A stretch of DNA of 43,870 nucleotides from Escherichia phage AnnaReinhart_Bas75: the sequence record PQ850596.1. The stretch is one strand, 5' to 3'. The notes beneath the pieces are model-generated. The model made no database searches. It saw only the letters and a list, made by a program, of their open reading frames with translations, and was not told where the DNA came from. Shown here piece after piece: positions 4,908-41,729 of this stretch; positions within the stretch are counted from its first letter, which is position 1; each line of letters starts with the position of its first letter. Made by a program: the position numbers and the translations under genes.

Positions 4908-5111
4908 TCAACGGAATCTTGTGTTTAAATCCTGCTCGTGGACGACCCTCAGAACAGTGTCATAATCCCCGTATCTTCCAGGTTCAAATATATCTAATGC
5001 CTTGTAAGCAGACATTGCGTCAGGGAAAACCTGCAGAACCTTTTTAACCCGGCACAAGTCACCGTCGAACTCTTCATCGAACTCTTGAACTACTTCGCAA
5101 ATTGCATACAT
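4908..5111 (-). CDS. hypothetical small acidic protein (67 aa), single-gene minus-strand insert
   Basis: ORF with AGGAGG RBS 8 nt before ATG, own early-type promoter (5139..5167) and shared terminator; opposite orientation to flanking structural genes. Confidence 0.6.
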   Translation of the reverse strand: MYAICEVVQEFDEEFDGDLCRVKKVLQVFPDAMSAYKALDIFEPGRYGDYDTVLRVVHEQDLNTRFR

Positions 5112-5486: not shown

Positions 5487-5873
5487 ATGAATCTTAAAGC
5501 AACTGTCGTAGCAGGAGCATGTTTCATCATCCTGGTTTACGCACACGGCATCTACCAGTATCGCAGCGGATGGAACGAAGGCCGGGCTAATCTCGTTTCG
5601 CAGCAACAGCAGAAAGCACAGGCTGAGTTAGCGAAGAAAACACAACGGCAGCAGCAGGATGAATCGAAGGCCGCCGCCGCTGACAACGAAGGCAAGACGA
5701 AATCAGAGGTGATTACCCGTGAAGTCGTTAAGTACATTAAAACGCCTGGTCGCAGTGTGTGCGCTTTTGACCCTGAGCGCGTGCAGCTCAAGTCCCGCGC
5801 CGTCGCAAACGCCAACTCCATCCCCGGATACGACGATGATGCAGCCGCCGTGCAAACTGGCACCGCCAAGTAG
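5487..5873 (+). CDS. Rz: i-spanin (Rz-like inner membrane spanin)
   Basis: 128 aa; N-terminal transmembrane segment (VVAGACFIILVYAHGIY), then Gln/Ala/Lys-rich predicted coiled coil; contains an embedded out-of-frame lipoprotein ORF, the hallmark Rz/Rz1 arrangement. Confidence 0.6.
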   Translation: MNLKATVVAGACFIILVYAHGIYQYRSGWNEGRANLVSQQQQKAQAELAKKTQRQQQDESKAAAADNEGKTKSEVITREVVKYIKTPGRSVCAFDPERVQLKSRAVANANSIPGYDDDAAAVQTGTAK

Positions 5874-5982
5874 CGACGCCGACGAGGATTTGGCTATCGA
5901 CGTTCAGAACGCTGAATGTGTACGGCAACTGAGGCTGAAAGTGTTTATGTTGCAGGATTACGTGAGGAATATTCTGGAATAG
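5719..5982 (+). CDS. Rz1: o-spanin (Rz1-like outer membrane lipoprotein), overlapping the 3' end of Rz in another frame
   Basis: GTG start with GAGGTGA RBS; signal peptide ending in lipobox LSAC; Pro-rich mature region (SPAPSQTPTPSP...PPC), typical of Rz1. Confidence 0.55.
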   Translation: MKSLSTLKRLVAVCALLTLSACSSSPAPSQTPTPSPDTTMMQPPCKLAPPSSDADEDLAIDVQNAECVRQLRLKVFMLQDYVRNILE

Positions 5983-27660: not shown

Positions 27661-27791
27661 TCATTCCAGCACCCACAGATAAATTGCGATGAACATGCCC
27701 AATATGGCAACCATCATGCCGTATTGACCCTCGTGACAGTAGACACCTGCGGCAAATCCCGCCAGTACCGCGATAATCAGTTTACTTAGCA
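27661..27791 (-). CDS. small membrane protein (43 aa; unlisted)
   Basis: ATG at 27791 overlapping polymerase stop; hydrophobic sequence LIIAVLAGFAAGV...MMVAILGMFIAIYLWVL. Confidence 0.35.
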
Positions 27792-29962
27792 TAGCGTTTT
27801 AACTCCTGACCTTCCGCTACAAGAGGGAACCCCTCCGCCCATTCTGGTAATTCGCACATCAATCGCTCAAGCTCTGCGACATTGTATTCCGGCGTATCTG
27901 GAGTTTCGCAGATAATCTCATCGTGGACATGAAGTACAATTGGATAACCGTTTGCTTCTACGTTCAGCAGCGCGTTGGCCAGCAAATCACGGCACAACGC
28001 CTGAGTGCAGTTTTCCACCAGTTTACCAGAGTAGGTGTACTGGAAGCCCCACTGCCGGGTTAACTGGTTTTCGCCCTGGTACTTGATGCGCACGTTAGTA
28101 GACACCTTTCCATCTTCGTCTGTCTCTTTCGACACACTTAATCCGACGCCCGGGTATGACATAACGCGACCCGACGGCAACGTCATGCGCAACCACCAGC
28201 CCGCGACTTTGTCGCCGTTGTTGTCTGTCTCTATGTTACGCGAAAACTTAACGCCTCGCGGTCCTGCGGTGAACTCTTTACCTGGATTGCGGATAGCGGC
28301 CATAGCTGCGTCTTCAATATCTCGCCAGAAAGCTACTGTTTCAGGGTGTGACTCTCGCCACATACGCTTGATAGCGTCACAGGTACGCCACACTTTCTTA
28401 TCAAGAATATACGATGGTCGGTCATCCTTCTCCCCGGGTCGCGGCGGTCGCTTGGCTTCCTGAATACGTGCCCATTCATAGCCGCGTGCAGTAGCCGCCC
28501 AGATGTGGTCCGGGAAAGTACCGTCCATTGTTTTTGACATATCAACAAGGTCAAGTCCGAGGTTCTTAGCAAACTGAACGAAAGCGCCAACACCACCAGC
28601 GTAGCCGAGGCCAAGCTCGCAGGCTTTACCAATCTGGCGCAAGTCTTTGCGTTCCTTCTTAATGTAATCCGGCTCCATGCCGAACATCTTACCCGCGGTT
28701 ACACAGTAAATGTCCAGCCCGGCGCGGAACGTATCTAGCGCGGTTTCTTCGCCTGCCAGCCACGCAAGCCCCCGACCTTCAACGTTAGAGTAATCGGCGA
28801 CGACAAACTTTTTTCCGGCTTCCGGGATAATGCAGCTACGCACCGTCGATGCCGTTAGCTTGGCTACGTCGAAACGGCGATGCGCACGACCCTTAAGTAG
28901 CGCTGAAATGCCCTTATCCAGTTCATCATCGTGATAGTACCCGCGCGCCAGGTTCTGTGGTTGGAAGCCTTTACCTGCGAACCGTAACGTACGCTTGGCC
29001 CCACCGTACTGGATGCAACCACGGCGGCGGTCGTCCGACGAGCGACCCAACAGCAGCGGGTTATATTTCGTTGACGCAGTGGACGCGGCCCCGAGGCGCA
29101 TTTCTATAATTGTGCGGGCGTCGTCGGGTAAATCCTCATCCGCCAGCAGGTCGTTAAGCGTTGACTTCTGTGCATTGTGTATGCGGTGCGCGGGCGCAAG
29201 TTCACGCAGAATCGGCAGGAAGTCTTTACCAGTAAGCGAGCCGCCGTATTTACGTTGAGCTTCTTCCTGTAACTGTGCCTTGTGCTTCTCTACGGCTTCA
29301 ATAGCGGCTTCCGCCAGTGCGACGTCAACCTTAAATCCGCGGTCGTTGATTAACTGGTCAAGCTCCAGTACACGGTCTTCGAACTCGGAGTTACCCCAAC
29401 GCGGCAGCTTATGGAAGACTTCACGCATCGCAGTGATGTCGCTCACGGCGTACCTGATGAACATCGCCCACTCGTCAGGGTGAGTTTCTGCGGTGTAGCG
29501 GCGGATTTTGTAGTTCTTCGGCGTCGGTTTAGAGAAACGCTTAATCAGAGCCTTGCCGCGTTTATCTTTCGCGTTGTCTGCAGACACGCCCAGCACTTCG
29601 CACAGCGCATCGAGTGACCCCGGCAGCGCGTGACGAAACGCCCAAATCATCGTATCAATGGCGTTGCTTACGGGAATATCAAAGCCCCAGCAGTGTTTCA
29701 TGATGAGCCTGTCGAACATTGAGCCGTTGTGCCACACCATCTTAATACGACTGTTCGGCTTAACCAGGCGGCGCAGTGCGCGGTGCAAATCACCCGGCAT
29801 GTCGCTTCCGTCGGTGCAATCCCATACCCGCACAGGCTCGTCGTCAAAAGCATATGTGCAGATAAGCACTTCGGTAGTCGGGTGTTCGGCGTAAGCGTAG
29901 GAGCCGACTTTCTTTAAATCGGCTTCGGAGAATGTTTCAAAGTCCAGGTATAAGTAGCTCAT
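27782..29962 (-). CDS. DNA polymerase, family A, with 3'-5' exonuclease domain
   Basis: 726 aa from ATG 29962 (AAGGA RBS); Exo I motif LDFETFS, motif B-like RQIGKACELGLGYAGG, motif C VLHVHDEI. Confidence 0.85.
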   Translation of the reverse strand: MSYLYLDFETFSEADLKKVGSYAYAEHPTTEVLICTYAFDDEPVRVWDCTDGSDMPGDLHRALRRLVKPNSRIKMVWHNGSMFDRLIMKHCWGFDIPVSNAIDTMIWAFRHALPGSLDALCEVLGVSADNAKDKRGKALIKRFSKPTPKNYKIRRYTAETHPDEWAMFIRYAVSDITAMREVFHKLPRWGNSEFEDRVLELDQLINDRGFKVDVALAEAAIEAVEKHKAQLQEEAQRKYGGSLTGKDFLPILRELAPAHRIHNAQKSTLNDLLADEDLPDDARTIIEMRLGAASTASTKYNPLLLGRSSDDRRRGCIQYGGAKRTLRFAGKGFQPQNLARGYYHDDELDKGISALLKGRAHRRFDVAKLTASTVRSCIIPEAGKKFVVADYSNVEGRGLAWLAGEETALDTFRAGLDIYCVTAGKMFGMEPDYIKKERKDLRQIGKACELGLGYAGGVGAFVQFAKNLGLDLVDMSKTMDGTFPDHIWAATARGYEWARIQEAKRPPRPGEKDDRPSYILDKKVWRTCDAIKRMWRESHPETVAFWRDIEDAAMAAIRNPGKEFTAGPRGVKFSRNIETDNNGDKVAGWWLRMTLPSGRVMSYPGVGLSVSKETDEDGKVSTNVRIKYQGENQLTRQWGFQYTYSGKLVENCTQALCRDLLANALLNVEANGYPIVLHVHDEIICETPDTPEYNVAELERLMCELPEWAEGFPLVAEGQELKRYAK

Positions 29963-31107: not shown

Positions 31108-32330
31108 TCAGGACGTTTGTCGTCTGCCGTTGCGACACATGGTGCGCCTGGCTTACGGGTAATGAAGTCTTTCAGTTCTTCTTCCGGTACAATTTTAACC
31201 GCTTCGGTCGGTGTCATAAGAACTACCTTTTGCAGCATAGTACCGTACTTCTCGAATACTGCGTCGGTATCTTTCCACGCACGATTACCGTGGCGACCTT
31301 CAACCAGTTTGTATCCTGGCACTTTCTTACCTGAATGCAAAGCAGCAGCCATCGCTTTCTCAACCTTGTCGATGTGCTGGCGCAACAACGGCAGCTTCTC
31401 ATACTCAGCGACGAGTTGCTCTGGCGTAAGTTCCAGCGCACAGTCGTCCTCAAGTTCTTCCGCCAGTACCGCGTTAACGGTTTTTGTACGAGCTGCGCAC
31501 TGTTCCGAGAAACGACACCACTGACAACCATCTACCGACGGCTTGAAGTCCGACGCTTTAAGGTTCTTCTTGCCACGGGAATAAGCATCAAGGGCTAACA
31601 GCGCTCGTTTCCGCGCGAACTTAGCGAACAGCTCCAGACCTTCAACCGAGATGTCCCATTCCGACGCGCCTCCAGCATACGGCTGGAAGATGACCAGACG
31701 AACCACGGTGATGTTATAGCGTCTCTTGAGTCGGCGATAAACACCGAGAGCGTAAAGCATAAGCTGCTTGTTTTCTTTCGCTTCGACACGATGTCGCCCG
31801 GTTTTCAGGTCACCGATAATGAGCATGTGCCCGTCGGTGTTAGCCAGTTCCTGCACGGCTACAAGGTCGGCGGTTCCGAACGTCTCAACGCCTTCGTAAC
31901 CCGGATGCAGCACCTCAGTAAGATTTACGCGCATCTCCAGCTTAGCGTAAGTCGCCACGTCAATAATCGCTTTGCAGTAGTCGGTGTACTTGCGTACCTG
32001 CTCAATCATGTCAGCCGTAATAAGTACCGCACCTTTCATCGGACTGATTAGCGCCTTAATCTGACCTTTACCCTCATCCAGCACGTAAGCGCCGACTTCT
32101 CGTTCTAACGGCAAAGCAGTTCCTTTGATGTACTGATTCAGGTGAATCTCAGATATCGTGTGCATAGCCGTGCCTGATATGGCGGCTTTACCTGACGTGT
32201 TAGGAATGTCTTTTTCACATGCCAGCGATGCACTGCACGCCAACCATTTCTTAGCACCAGACGGCGACAGTAAGGCGTGTACATCGTTATTTCCGCCGCG
32301 TTCCTTTAAAACCATGCTCTGCTCTCCCAC
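31074..32330 (-). CDS. PD-(D/E)XK exonuclease with C-terminal Cys cluster (Cas4-like)
   Basis: 418 aa; N-terminal LSPSGAKKWLAC motif; C-terminal Cys cluster DGCQWCRFSEQC. Confidence 0.55.
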   Translation of the reverse strand: MGEQSMVLKERGGNNDVHALLSPSGAKKWLACSASLACEKDIPNTSGKAAISGTAMHTISEIHLNQYIKGTALPLEREVGAYVLDEGKGQIKALISPMKGAVLITADMIEQVRKYTDYCKAIIDVATYAKLEMRVNLTEVLHPGYEGVETFGTADLVAVQELANTDGHMLIIGDLKTGRHRVEAKENKQLMLYALGVYRRLKRRYNITVVRLVIFQPYAGGASEWDISVEGLELFAKFARKRALLALDAYSRGKKNLKASDFKPSVDGCQWCRFSEQCAARTKTVNAVLAEELEDDCALELTPEQLVAEYEKLPLLRQHIDKVEKAMAAALHSGKKVPGYKLVEGRHGNRAWKDTDAVFEKYGTMLQKVVLMTPTEAVKIVPEEELKDFITRKPGAPCVATADDKRPEWNQVTEGDLE

Positions 32331-40005: not shown

Positions 40006-40286
40006 TGTCTCTTGCAACTGACATCCTGAAACGAAGCGGCCTTGCGCCGCTGTCACCGAAAGTTAAGACGCGAGCACGTAACGCAACTTACAAGGAACTG
40101 GCAGAACGGCGTAAAGCTATCCGCGCCTGTGGATTCCAGAACGGGAAGGCCGTTAACCTCGGTGAGTTTAAAACACAGGAACGCGCGGCAATCGCTAATC
40201 GGTTATTTAATTACTGGAAATCGCTGGGATACGAGGATATTCCGACGAAACCACAGAGACGACAGTACATCTGGAGACACAAATAA
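40005..40286 (+). CDS. hypothetical protein (93 aa)
   Basis: ATG overlaps previous stop; GAGGGGGTGGAG RBS. Confidence 0.5.
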   Translation: MSLATDILKRSGLAPLSPKVKTRARNATYKELAERRKAIRACGFQNGKAVNLGEFKTQERAAIANRLFNYWKSLGYEDIPTKPQRRQYIWRHK

Positions 40287-40361
40287 ACCGTTATTAAGAT
40301 AATTCCTACCCGTGGTATCCTCCAGTTACTGCATACTTAATACGCACCTGGAGGATTCATC

Positions 40362-40670
40362 TTGGATAAATTTACTGAAACAGTGACTGGGTGGCTTCTG
40401 GCAGCCGCACTAGCTGGTGGGGTAATCGGACTACGACAACATAAGTCCGCTATTTCCGGCCCTATCGACGGCTTCTGCTTTATTGCAACTGGCTTCACTT
40501 GCGCCGTATTTGGCGCACCTCTCGCAGCTCAATGGTTTGGAATCACGGGCGACCGTGAAATCGCAGGCCTGGGCTTCATTATCGCTATTCTCTGGATGCC
40601 TATCTATTCCCGTCTGTCCGGTATCGTCGCCGGAGAATACATCGCACGTCGAGGAGGCCCGGATGAATGA
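40362..40670 (+). CDS. holin (three predicted transmembrane segments)
   Basis: 102 aa; three hydrophobic stretches and charged C-terminus; CTGGAGGA RBS; immediately upstream of endolysin. Confidence 0.6.
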   Translation: MDKFTETVTGWLLAAALAGGVIGLRQHKSAISGPIDGFCFIATGFTCAVFGAPLAAQWFGITGDREIAGLGFIIAILWMPIYSRLSGIVAGEYIARRGGPDE

Positions 40671-40935
40671 GTTATTCTGGTTCTGCGGTATGCTGGCAAT
40701 CGGAGGCACATCGCTGTTTAATGTGTATCATCCCAGCGTTGACGACGGGCTATTTGGCCGGGTGCTCTATATCCTGACTGCTATTGTCTGCGCCGCAGGA
40801 TGTATCCACCTGTTACAGGGCAGCATGTCTCCGACGCTGCCTGAGACATTAATCACATTAGTTGCGCTGCGCCAGATTCGTCAGGCGTGGCTGTCATACG
40901 GAGGACATAAGCGTGTCTCGAAATATTTCAGATAA
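40663..40935 (+). CDS. second lysis-associated membrane protein (two TMDs; holin or antiholin candidate)
   Basis: 90 aa from ATG 40663 (GGAGG RBS); two hydrophobic segments; overlaps both neighbours. Confidence 0.45.
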   Translation: MNELFWFCGMLAIGGTSLFNVYHPSVDDGLFGRVLYILTAIVCAAGCIHLLQGSMSPTLPETLITLVALRQIRQAWLSYGGHKRVSKYFR

Positions 40936-41398
40936 TGGATTGCATTTCACCGCTGCGTTCGAGGGATTCCGCGGAACTGCATACCGCGCTACGCCGAACG
41001 AGAAGTACCTGACTATCGGGTACGGGCACTATGGGCCGGACGTAACCCCGGGTAAGACCATCACACCGGGGCAAGGCCTCCTGTTACTGAATCGTGATAT
41101 GGCTAAGGCCGTAGCTGCGGTTGACGCAGCAGCACACCATTCATTGACACAGGCACAGTTCGATGCAGTGTGCGACCTGGTATACAACGCAGGTGCTGGT
41201 GTGATTGCAGCTGCTACCGGCACAGGAAAGGCGCTGCGTTCTGGTGACATCGCGACACTGCGGGCTAAACTGGCGCTGTTTATCAACCAGAACGGCAAAC
41301 CGTTACTTGGTCTGCGCCGCCGTACTGCCGGGCGTCTTGCACTGTTTGACGGCAAGCCGTGGCAGGAGGCGGAGGCCATTGGGAGGGCTGTTAAATGA
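40913..41398 (+). CDS. endolysin, phage lysozyme (GH24 / T4-lysozyme-like)
   Basis: 161 aa from GTG 40913 (GGAGGA RBS); N-terminal catalytic region FEGFRGTAYRATPNEKYLTIGYGH resembles the E...D...T lysozyme core. Confidence 0.75.
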   Translation: MSRNISDNGLHFTAAFEGFRGTAYRATPNEKYLTIGYGHYGPDVTPGKTITPGQGLLLLNRDMAKAVAAVDAAAHHSLTQAQFDAVCDLVYNAGAGVIAAATGTGKALRSGDIATLRAKLALFINQNGKPLLGLRRRTAGRLALFDGKPWQEAEAIGRAVK

Positions 41399-41487
41399 CA
41401 GAGTTTGACTTCATTTTCCTGGCTATTGGAGCTGGTGCGATAGCTGGCGCGATTTGGGGTGTGATTGACGCTCTCCGTAAAGGTTGA
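41395..41487 (+). CDS. small hydrophobic peptide (30 aa) coupled to endolysin
   Basis: ATG overlaps endolysin stop (ATGA); single Gly/Ala-rich TM-like helix. Confidence 0.35.
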   Translation: MTEFDFIFLAIGAGAIAGAIWGVIDALRKG

Positions 41488-41553
41488 CACCTAAGACTAA
41501 TCCGACGATACTTAAATCACCTCCTGTTCCATCCCTCTGCTCTCCAGTTTTAT

Positions 41554-41583
41554 CCCGGCCCTGACCCAGCCGGGATTTTTTTA
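41554..41583 (+). terminator. rho-independent terminator CCCGGC-N9-GCCGGG followed by ATTTTTTT
   Basis: 6-bp GC stem plus 7-T run after the lysis cassette. Confidence 0.7.
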
Positions 41584-41604
41584 TCTATTTTCTGCAATGA
41601 CTAG

Positions 41605-41633
41605 TTGACTATTACCTACGACCCTATTATATT
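41605..41633 (+). promoter_or_regulatory. sigma70-like promoter TTGACT-N17-TATATT
   Basis: Followed by CGACAACGAGAACGGAG leader similar to those after promoters 37025 and 38441. Confidence 0.5.
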
Positions 41634-41729
41634 TACTCCATCGACAACGAGAACGGAGTAGAGAAGATGAGTAACGTACAGACAATCGCAATAACCGAGG
41701 AACTTGAAGCCAAATGTATCGCATAGACT

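Follow-up and report, generated by a model that had tools for sequence, protein, structure and literature searches.

The lysis genes of Escherichia phage AnnaReinhart_Bas75 (sequence record PQ850596.1) end in an open reading frame (ORF) of only 30 codons, and the question raised by this locus is whether so small an ORF is a gene at all and, if it is, whether it takes part in lysis. We analyzed the whole 43,870-nucleotide (nt) stretch (the window) and found that positions 40362-41582 hold the late lysis operon of an E. coli siphophage (Kagunavirus), within which the 30-amino-acid (aa) ORF appears, from comparison with related phages, to be an accessory micro-gene. Megablast of positions 40200-41700 placed the source phage among the Kagunavirus (Guernseyvirinae) coliphages, with vB-Eco-KMB35 (97.7%) and Bas70 (97.4%) as its top matches. 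The same query matched 326 phage records, the others being Kagunavirus and Jerseyvirus phages on E. coli or Salmonella, and DNA identity was 90-98% among the listed Escherichia phage (Kagunavirus-type) records and 60-80% in the remotest related records. Related records annotate the same three genes (i.e., holin, holin and endolysin). An earlier note on this DNA had proposed a lysis cassette of four tightly coupled ORFs, and all four are present at the positions it gave, on the plus strand, with TTG, ATG, GTG and ATG starts, successive overlaps of 8, 23 and 4 nt, and a GGAGG-type Shine-Dalgarno sequence (SD) 5-7 nt 5' of each start. Matches to PHROG holin families and to the endolysin family PF00959, along with conservation in the 326 phage records, bear out the lysis cassette, and we regard its identity as practically certain. 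This holin-holin-endolysin cassette is already known and annotated in hundreds of GenBank phages and adds nothing new by itself; the novelty of the locus is limited to the 30-aa gene.

The 30-aa ORF, which would encode a single-pass peptide (MTEFDFIFLAIGAGAIAGAIWGVIDALRKG), occupies positions 41395-41487 on the plus strand, and its ATG overlaps the endolysin stop codon by 4 nt (ATGA), just as the earlier note had read it. Alignment revealed that the 86-nt stretch in which the ORF lies (~41392-41477) is missing from the closest relatives, where the endolysin ends in GRAVKG and a stop codon. One phage without the peptide is Bas70, whose endolysin is 98% identical to the one studied here and whose holin-like proteins are 98% and 100% identical (100% for the 90-aa protein). 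Blastn with the DNA found the 86-nt segment in 5 of the 326 related GenBank records; a tblastn search with the peptide returned no match among 50,697 phage records, almost certainly as a result of low-complexity filtering. BUCT823 has a 30-aa version in a record without any annotation, HSE2 has a 26-aa version with one repeat unit fewer (an unannotated ORF), and vB_VIPECOTPH05A has a divergent 30-aa version, the sole one annotated as a coding sequence ('hypothetical protein'). In SZH-1 (two records of one phage), the peptide ORF carries a 1-nt frameshift and is likewise unannotated. Of the three carrier genomes annotated in GenBank, two thus overlook the gene, and the fourth carrier is wholly unannotated. 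Junctions at 35 IMG/VR loci fell into three types, with the peptide in 2, a plain KG and stop in 21 and a third arrangement in 12, and a degenerate DNA pattern for MTE[FI]DFI..IG retrieved just two IMG/VR contigs, both already known carriers. Because relatives with 98-100% identical holin-like proteins do without the 86-nt stretch, these comparisons indicate that the 30-aa ORF is an accessory, not a core lysis gene, and because near-identical phages lack the peptide, it should be dispensable for lysis. The earlier picture of a four-gene unit holds in part: the coupling is real, but the peptide is not integral to the unit, being absent from near-identical relatives. The 86-nt event was an insertion or a deletion between GTNAAA microhomologies.

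The endolysin 3' junction (41381-41487) is a hypervariable hot-spot with three states. In state A, the endolysin ends in KG and a stop codon and no coupled ORF follows, and in state B, the SD and ATGA are followed by the 30-aa peptide. State C has the same SD and ATGA, then an 8-codon mini-ORF (MMDEYEGV or MMEENWDV, each followed by a stop) and then variable cargo, which includes extra genes and possibly structured non-coding DNA; it was seen just past position 2483 in loci L009, L015, L017, L019, L021, L023, L025, L032, L033, L035, L037 and L046.

Is the ORF translated? Its SD (GGGAGGG, 41381-41387, plus strand) lies inside the endolysin gene, 7 nt 5' of the ATG, and owes its sequence to a rare codon, AGG, that specifies the penultimate Arg of the endolysin. 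Where a coupled ORF follows, this Arg is encoded by AGG or AGA (24 of 25 loci), and where none follows, by CGC or CGT (23 of 23 loci), an association that may partly reflect linkage within a swapped segment and in which 10 of the 13 peptide-bearing loci had been chosen for an identical peptide. An exact cluster look-up in a 15-billion-protein collection yielded 23 distinct peptide variants on ~140 contigs, with the ORF intact at 30-33 aa, and in addition there is one 43-aa stop-loss variant (P0042). Both the order holin-holin-endolysin-peptide and the ATGA overlap were present in 10 of the 10 places displayed (16 contigs read), with differing flanking genes. Pairwise ratios of non-synonymous to synonymous divergence (pN/pS) were 0.18-0.41 at pS of 0.23-0.71, and variable sites were distributed 13/7/20 over codon positions 1, 2 and 3. 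Residues G12, G14, G18, G22 and D25 are invariant over the 23 variants, replacements are hydrophobic-for-hydrophobic, and the length of 30-33 aa is kept in lineages only 80% identical in DNA. Purifying selection, a conserved frame and translation signals, the features by which a protein-coding micro-gene is recognized, are all present and point to expression of the ORF. On this evidence, we consider it likely that the 30-aa peptide is the product of a translated gene.

The predicted peptide consists of an acidic N-terminus (MTEFD), a 19-residue hydrophobic core (residues 6-24) and a basic C-terminus (DALRKG). The core has a mean Kyte-Doolittle hydropathy of 2.24 and a Hessa-scale sum of -0.7 kcal/mol, so that no other segment of the cassette is predicted to favor the membrane as strongly, and this single strongly hydrophobic segment agrees with the earlier description of the peptide as transmembrane (TM)-like. 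The positive-inside rule suggests an N-out/C-in orientation for a peptide that would insert into the membrane; its net charge is -1 and its hydrophobic moment 0.11. Small residues occur at every fourth position (A10-G14-G18-G22-A26) and form a glycine zipper, which is commonly seen in helices that pack tightly or oligomerize. The G-x-x-x periodicity of this zipper is encoded by a 12-nt (4-codon) tandem repeat within the micro-gene (41430-41453, plus strand; 2.0 copies, 91% matches by Tandem Repeats Finder). The corresponding repeat of BUCT823 has 2.8 copies (95%), and copy number varies among relatives, which suggests that the peptide grew through changes in repeat copy number.

When 1.84 billion representative proteins were searched exhaustively with phmmer, the peptide matched just two clusters, both from this phage group and one of them a stop-loss read-through, and the peptide has no Pfam, NCBIfam or PADLOC family. 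Sub-threshold matches were weak (phrog_23152, of unknown function, E ~1e-3; LapA_dom, E 0.3-0.7), as was that of one 33-aa variant to HIG_1_N (PF04588; E=0.0024), which fell under the curated cut-off. One metagenomic record bears the name 'YtxH-like', which we rejected because no hidden Markov model (HMM) match backs it. The peptide (41407-41484) is weakly similar to endolysin residues 88-111 (41174-41245; DLVYNAGAGVIAAATGTGKALRSG), with a score of 44 that was equaled in 3 of 5000 shuffles. An origin by duplication of these residues was not accepted, since other variants were matched by 76, 216 and 1278 of 5000 shuffles, and the similarity may be due to chance or be the trace of an internal duplication. 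Within the window, the only other small ATG ORF (20-60 aa) that has an SD and a strongly hydrophobic segment is a 43-aa ORF (MLSKLIIAVLAGFAAGVYCHEGQYGMMVAILGMFIAIYLWVLE) on the minus strand at 27661-27792, in the replication-gene region.

To what machinery is the peptide coupled? The gene it overlaps encodes a soluble GH24 (T4-lysozyme-type) endolysin of 161 aa (40913-41398, plus strand), which itself overlaps the upstream 90-aa gene by 23 nt and whose GTG start is internal to a longer ORF (40862-41398). Residues 15-138 match PF00959 with 95.1 bits (cut-off 22.3), and the full 161 residues are 95% identical to PDB 8HP8 ('Endolysin mtEC340M'), an engineered form of EC340 from coliphage PBEC131; the GH24-type assignment is thereby confirmed. 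In an alignment with T4 lysozyme and P22 gp19, residues E17 and T34 presumably match the catalytic E11 and T26 of T4 lysozyme. In the same alignment, the position of D20 in T4 lysozyme is held by Ala26, so that the second catalytic carboxylate is not matched, and a 2-residue insertion (P28-N29-E30) lies next to it; from the alignment, E30 may substitute for the missing Asp. The enzyme should work despite the Ala at the D20 position, because the 95%-identical EC340 degraded peptidoglycan in a zymogram (PMC8886149). Hydropathy analysis detected no signal-arrest-release (SAR) or signal sequence at the N-terminus (MSRNISDNGLHFTAAFEG), which has no hydrophobic stretch, and the sole hydropathy peak is internal (residues 83-101; Hessa-scale sum +9.3 kcal/mol). 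Because it has no N-terminal hydrophobic segment, the endolysin should be a soluble enzyme that needs a large-hole holin, and a system of SAR endolysin plus pinholin is ruled out by the missing N-terminal TM domain (TMD). The endolysin family already has a crystal structure and a use in enzybiotic engineering.

Two genes for holin-like proteins precede the endolysin. The first (40362-40670, plus strand) encodes 102 aa and matches phrog_2359 ('holin', 1e-29); its TTG is the sole possible start of the ORF and has GGAGGA 6 nt upstream. The second (40663-40935, plus strand) encodes 90 aa from an ATG, matches phrog_2508 ('holin', 1.5e-34) and overlaps the first by 8 nt (ATGAATGA). The earlier note had read three TMDs in the 102-aa protein and two in the 90-aa protein and had named TM prediction as a check. 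Hydropathy and AlphaFold2 secondary structure predicted helices in both and bore out these counts, with three hydrophobic helices (~4-26, 34-59 and 64-89) in the 102-aa protein and two firm TM helices (~2-22 and 29-51) plus an amphipathic third (58-79) in the 90-aa protein; mean predicted local distance difference test (pLDDT) scores were low (62 and 69.5, respectively), and the models were used for helix boundaries alone. The C-terminus of the 102-aa protein is short and charged (ARRGGPDE), the positive-inside rule suggests an N-out/C-in topology, and its helices presumably equal or exceed the three lambda S105 TMDs in hydrophobicity. In the 90-aa protein, TMD1 is rich in Gly, Ser and Thr and the C-terminus is basic (GGHKRVSKYFR); helix 3 is probably not membrane-spanning because its hydropathy is low (mean Kyte-Doolittle 0.59), its Hessa-scale sum is +10 kcal/mol and it contains two Arg. 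A published annotation gives 3 TMDs by DeepTMHMM to a homologue of the 90-aa protein (PMC9825357, PMC12529148).

Both proteins have the attributes of holins (i.e., they are small, contain one or more TMDs, end in a charged C-terminus and are encoded adjacent to the endolysin). Compared with a pinholin of the phage 21 S68 type, the 90-aa protein has the two TMDs, but its partner endolysin is soluble. Neither protein has a Pfam (E<=0.1), NCBIfam (noise only) or PADLOC family, and every homologue of theirs in a collection of 5.8 billion proteins shares 67% identity or more and has no Pfam domain. Labels in GenBank and in publications are reversed, 'class II' being given to the 102-aa protein and 'class I' to the 90-aa protein (PMC9825357, PMC12529148). 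In the one relevant assay found, made with trigger-factor fusions from Jerseyvirus S10, the endolysin-proximal gene cut viability 100-fold and the distal gene did not (PMC9677904); these genes are equated with the 90-aa and 102-aa genes, respectively, by position alone. Neither protein is thus in a curated holin family (Pfam, NCBIfam), and the published class labels conflict, a matter that bears on how the inner membrane is opened in Kagunavirus and Jerseyvirus, a large group of phages that therapy and biocontrol work uses widely.

The earlier note had also placed the spanins outside the cassette, and we found the pair at 5487-5982. The i-spanin (5487-5873, plus strand; 128 aa) has an N-terminal TM helix and matches phrog_2536 ('Rz-like spanin', 6.6e-57), and the overlapping o-spanin ORF (5719-5982, plus strand) has a signal peptide and the lipobox LSAC and matches phrog_5672 (4.4e-30) and phrog_1267 (3.6e-20). 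A TMD-bearing i-spanin overlapped by a lipobox-bearing o-spanin is the composition of a two-component Rz/Rz1-type spanin. Bas70 likewise annotates an Rz-like spanin pair among its head genes. Read from the GTG at 5719, the o-spanin ORF has the full signal peptide and lipobox (MKSLSTLKRLVAVCALLTLSAC), while the Bas70 annotation covers the last 47 codons only (5839-5982), without the lipoprotein signal, and is probably truncated. Disruptins (phiKT gp28-type) are cationic amphipathic peptides in phage lacking spanins. A disruptin-like stand-in for missing spanins was rejected for the 30-aa peptide, which is not cationic and belongs to a phage that does have spanins. The Kagunavirus lysis set has been described with the same five genes (PMC9825357).

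How might the peptide act among these proteins? In the canonical pathway, holin, endolysin and spanin act in that order. Here, two small inner-membrane proteins would build up late in infection, and, as the endolysin carries no signal for export, at least one of them should act as a large-hole holin, with the other as a co-holin or antiholin. Triggering would then give the soluble GH24 enzyme access to the murein, which it would degrade, and the Rz/Rz1-type spanins, encoded 35 kb away, would fuse or disrupt the outer membrane. Ribosomes ending at the endolysin TGA would restart at the overlapping ATG, aided by the AGG-based SD, so that the peptide would be supplied late and at a level tied to that of the endolysin. 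In the inner membrane, the peptide would self-associate or pack against holin helices, shifting the timing of the holin trigger. We tentatively suggest that the peptide modulates holin triggering or membrane energisation, and hence lysis timing; this role is favored because the peptide is dispensable, appears to be under purifying selection and is a predicted membrane helix made together with the lysis proteins. A regulatory part for it in lysis is possible and can only be accessory. Taken as a whole, a conserved cassette with a coupled peptide gene and a lysis-timing role is the explanation of the locus toward which we lean, if only slightly. The more specific proposal that the peptide is an unrecognised accessory lysis-timing factor (a holin micro-partner or a depolarising pore) born by expansion of the 12-nt repeat at the endolysin 3' junction is speculative.

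Several points weigh against this interpretation. The peptide's position in the lysis operon is its sole link to lysis, and the frameshift in SZH-1 and the shortening in HSE2 mean that selection on it is not absolute. The S10 assay is a weak guide to which of the two membrane proteins is the holin. In the nearest analogue, lydE of phage P1, deletion of the gene from a plasmid-borne cassette left lysis unchanged (PMC9025707). Moreover, the junction holds unrelated cargo in other relatives, so the peptide could be the product of a moron, an accessory gene with no relation to the genes around it and no part in lysis. That the gene is a moron unrelated to lysis, riding the late lysis transcript, is a possibility we view with some doubt, and the same doubt attaches to the roles such a gene might have (superinfection exclusion, disturbance of a defence system or of a membrane protein of the host, or type I toxin-like depolarisation). 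The hypervariable junction, where relatives carry the 8-codon mini-ORF and then unrelated cargo or non-coding DNA, is what a moron would lead one to expect, and presence of the peptide is independent both of holin sequence and of an HslV-like accessory gene upstream. However, the ATGA tie to the endolysin implies very late expression, which would be poor for exclusion or anti-defence, and no PADLOC, Pfam or NCBIfam match connects the peptide to such functions.

We find it unlikely that the ORF is non-functional (i.e., that a repeat-expanded insertion at a recombination junction created it as a neutral side effect and chance left it open). On this view, gene-finder calls would merely reflect GC-richness and hydrophobicity. 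Most relatives lack the ORF and it has no relatives outside the clade, its core is a 12-nt repeat of variable copy number, and it is frameshifted in SZH-1 and has lost its stop in P0042, all of which a chance ORF would accommodate. Such an ORF would not, however, be expected to show pN/pS of 0.18-0.41 with synonymous divergence up to 0.7, the 13/7/20 pattern of variation by codon position, the glycines and D25 unchanged in 23 variants, a length of 30-33 aa retained at 80% DNA identity, or the association of the SD-forming Arg codon with a coupled downstream ORF. Finally, since the ORF is read in frame -1 with respect to the endolysin, whose stop codon begins one base after the ORF does, a -1 slip at AAA-TGA could append it as a C-terminal anchor that tethers some of the endolysin to the membrane. 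The weak similarity of the peptide to endolysin residues 88-111 (3 of 5000 shuffles as high) could be cited in favor of such an anchor, but the similarity is not common to other peptide variants, we saw neither an X-XXY-YYZ slippery heptamer nor any stimulatory structure downstream, and a conserved SD and ATG serve the ORF itself, which together make an anchor highly improbable.

Downstream of the peptide gene, the lysis operon ends at an intrinsic terminator (41554-41582, plus strand), in which a hairpin (41554-41574) is followed by A and then T7 (41576-41582). Its CCCGGC/GCCGGG stem, 9-nt loop and centroid energy of -13.8 kcal/mol, with the U7 tract, substantiate the strong terminator that had been claimed; a simple terminator scanner missed the hairpin solely because the loop is longer than 8 nt. 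The terminator is conserved in all Kagunavirus loci examined, and in Jersey-like loci the stem is altered on both sides with pairing kept (CCCGGTAAC...TTACCGGG; GTTACCGGG in L040). The non-coding block that contains it (41484-41584) is more conserved than the endolysin coding sequence. It comprises an invariant sigma-70-like promoter (TTGACA, 17 nt, GATACT) with a variable spacer, then ~60 nt of CU-rich sequence (UCACCUCCUGUUCCAUCCCUCUGCUCUCC, with an anti-SD-like CCUCC), and then the terminator. From this layout, the block could specify a ~65-nt small RNA or a promoter-proximal terminator for antitermination control. A complementary 12-mer covers the SD of a minus-strand gene starting near 5111, and a complementary 11-mer covers the SD/ATG of a minus-strand gene starting near 32317. 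Rfam gave no match in the window or in nine related loci.

On the other side of the cassette, directly 5' of the first holin-like gene, a 146-aa gene annotated as 'HslV family peptidase / ATP-dependent protease' is found in many relatives (L002, 1584-2024; L003, 646-1086; L093-L099, 968-1408). This gene is absent from Bas70 and from the window (~40287-40361), and its presence is independent of the 30-aa peptide.

The micro-gene offers a natural experiment, in that phages differing by little beyond 86 nt carry or lack an endolysin-coupled membrane peptide. If the peptide does alter lysis timing, few known lysis regulators would be as small, and it would show a new membrane peptide arising from a short tandem repeat, and its gain or loss would let otherwise identical Kagunavirus cassettes retune the lysis clock.

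How does the cassette compare with known systems? Like lambda S105/S107 and phage 21 S68, the two holin-like proteins are small inner-membrane proteins encoded just 5' of the endolysin; the 102-aa protein resembles S105 in having three helices of similar hydrophobicity, and the 90-aa protein resembles S68 in its two TMDs, basic C-terminus and glycine-rich first helix. They differ in that the present pair has no sequence or HMM relation to any Pfam or NCBIfam holin family. In addition, there is no dual-start motif as in lambda S105/S107 (here there are two genes, not two products of one gene), and the endolysin is not of the SAR type found with S68, which excludes a pure pinholin system. The endolysin shares with EC340 of PBEC131 95% identity, the PF00959 fold and the lack of a cell-wall-binding domain, and differs from it by a few substitutions only. 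The peptide is like glycine-zipper small membrane peptides such as the small toxin TisB in having ~30 residues, one TM helix and a stripe of small residues every four residues, (G/A/S)xxxGxxxG being a packing motif of oligomeric or channel-forming helices; it differs from these peptides and from small toxins in that no homology between them is detectable. The P1 multi-holin system also has several holin-like proteins and a small ORF overlapping the end of the lysis operon (lyz-lydD-lydE), whose function is unknown and which has been proposed as a possible regulator (PMC9025707). P1, however, uses a SAR endolysin and a pinholin, and its genes have no sequence similarity to those described here. 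Closest of all is the Kagunavirus/Jerseyvirus module itself (fBC-Eco01, XY2 and Bas70), which has the same three genes in the same order with the same overlaps and the spanin pair remote among the head genes; the present cassette adds a coupled 30-aa fourth, which ~95% or more of those genomes lack.

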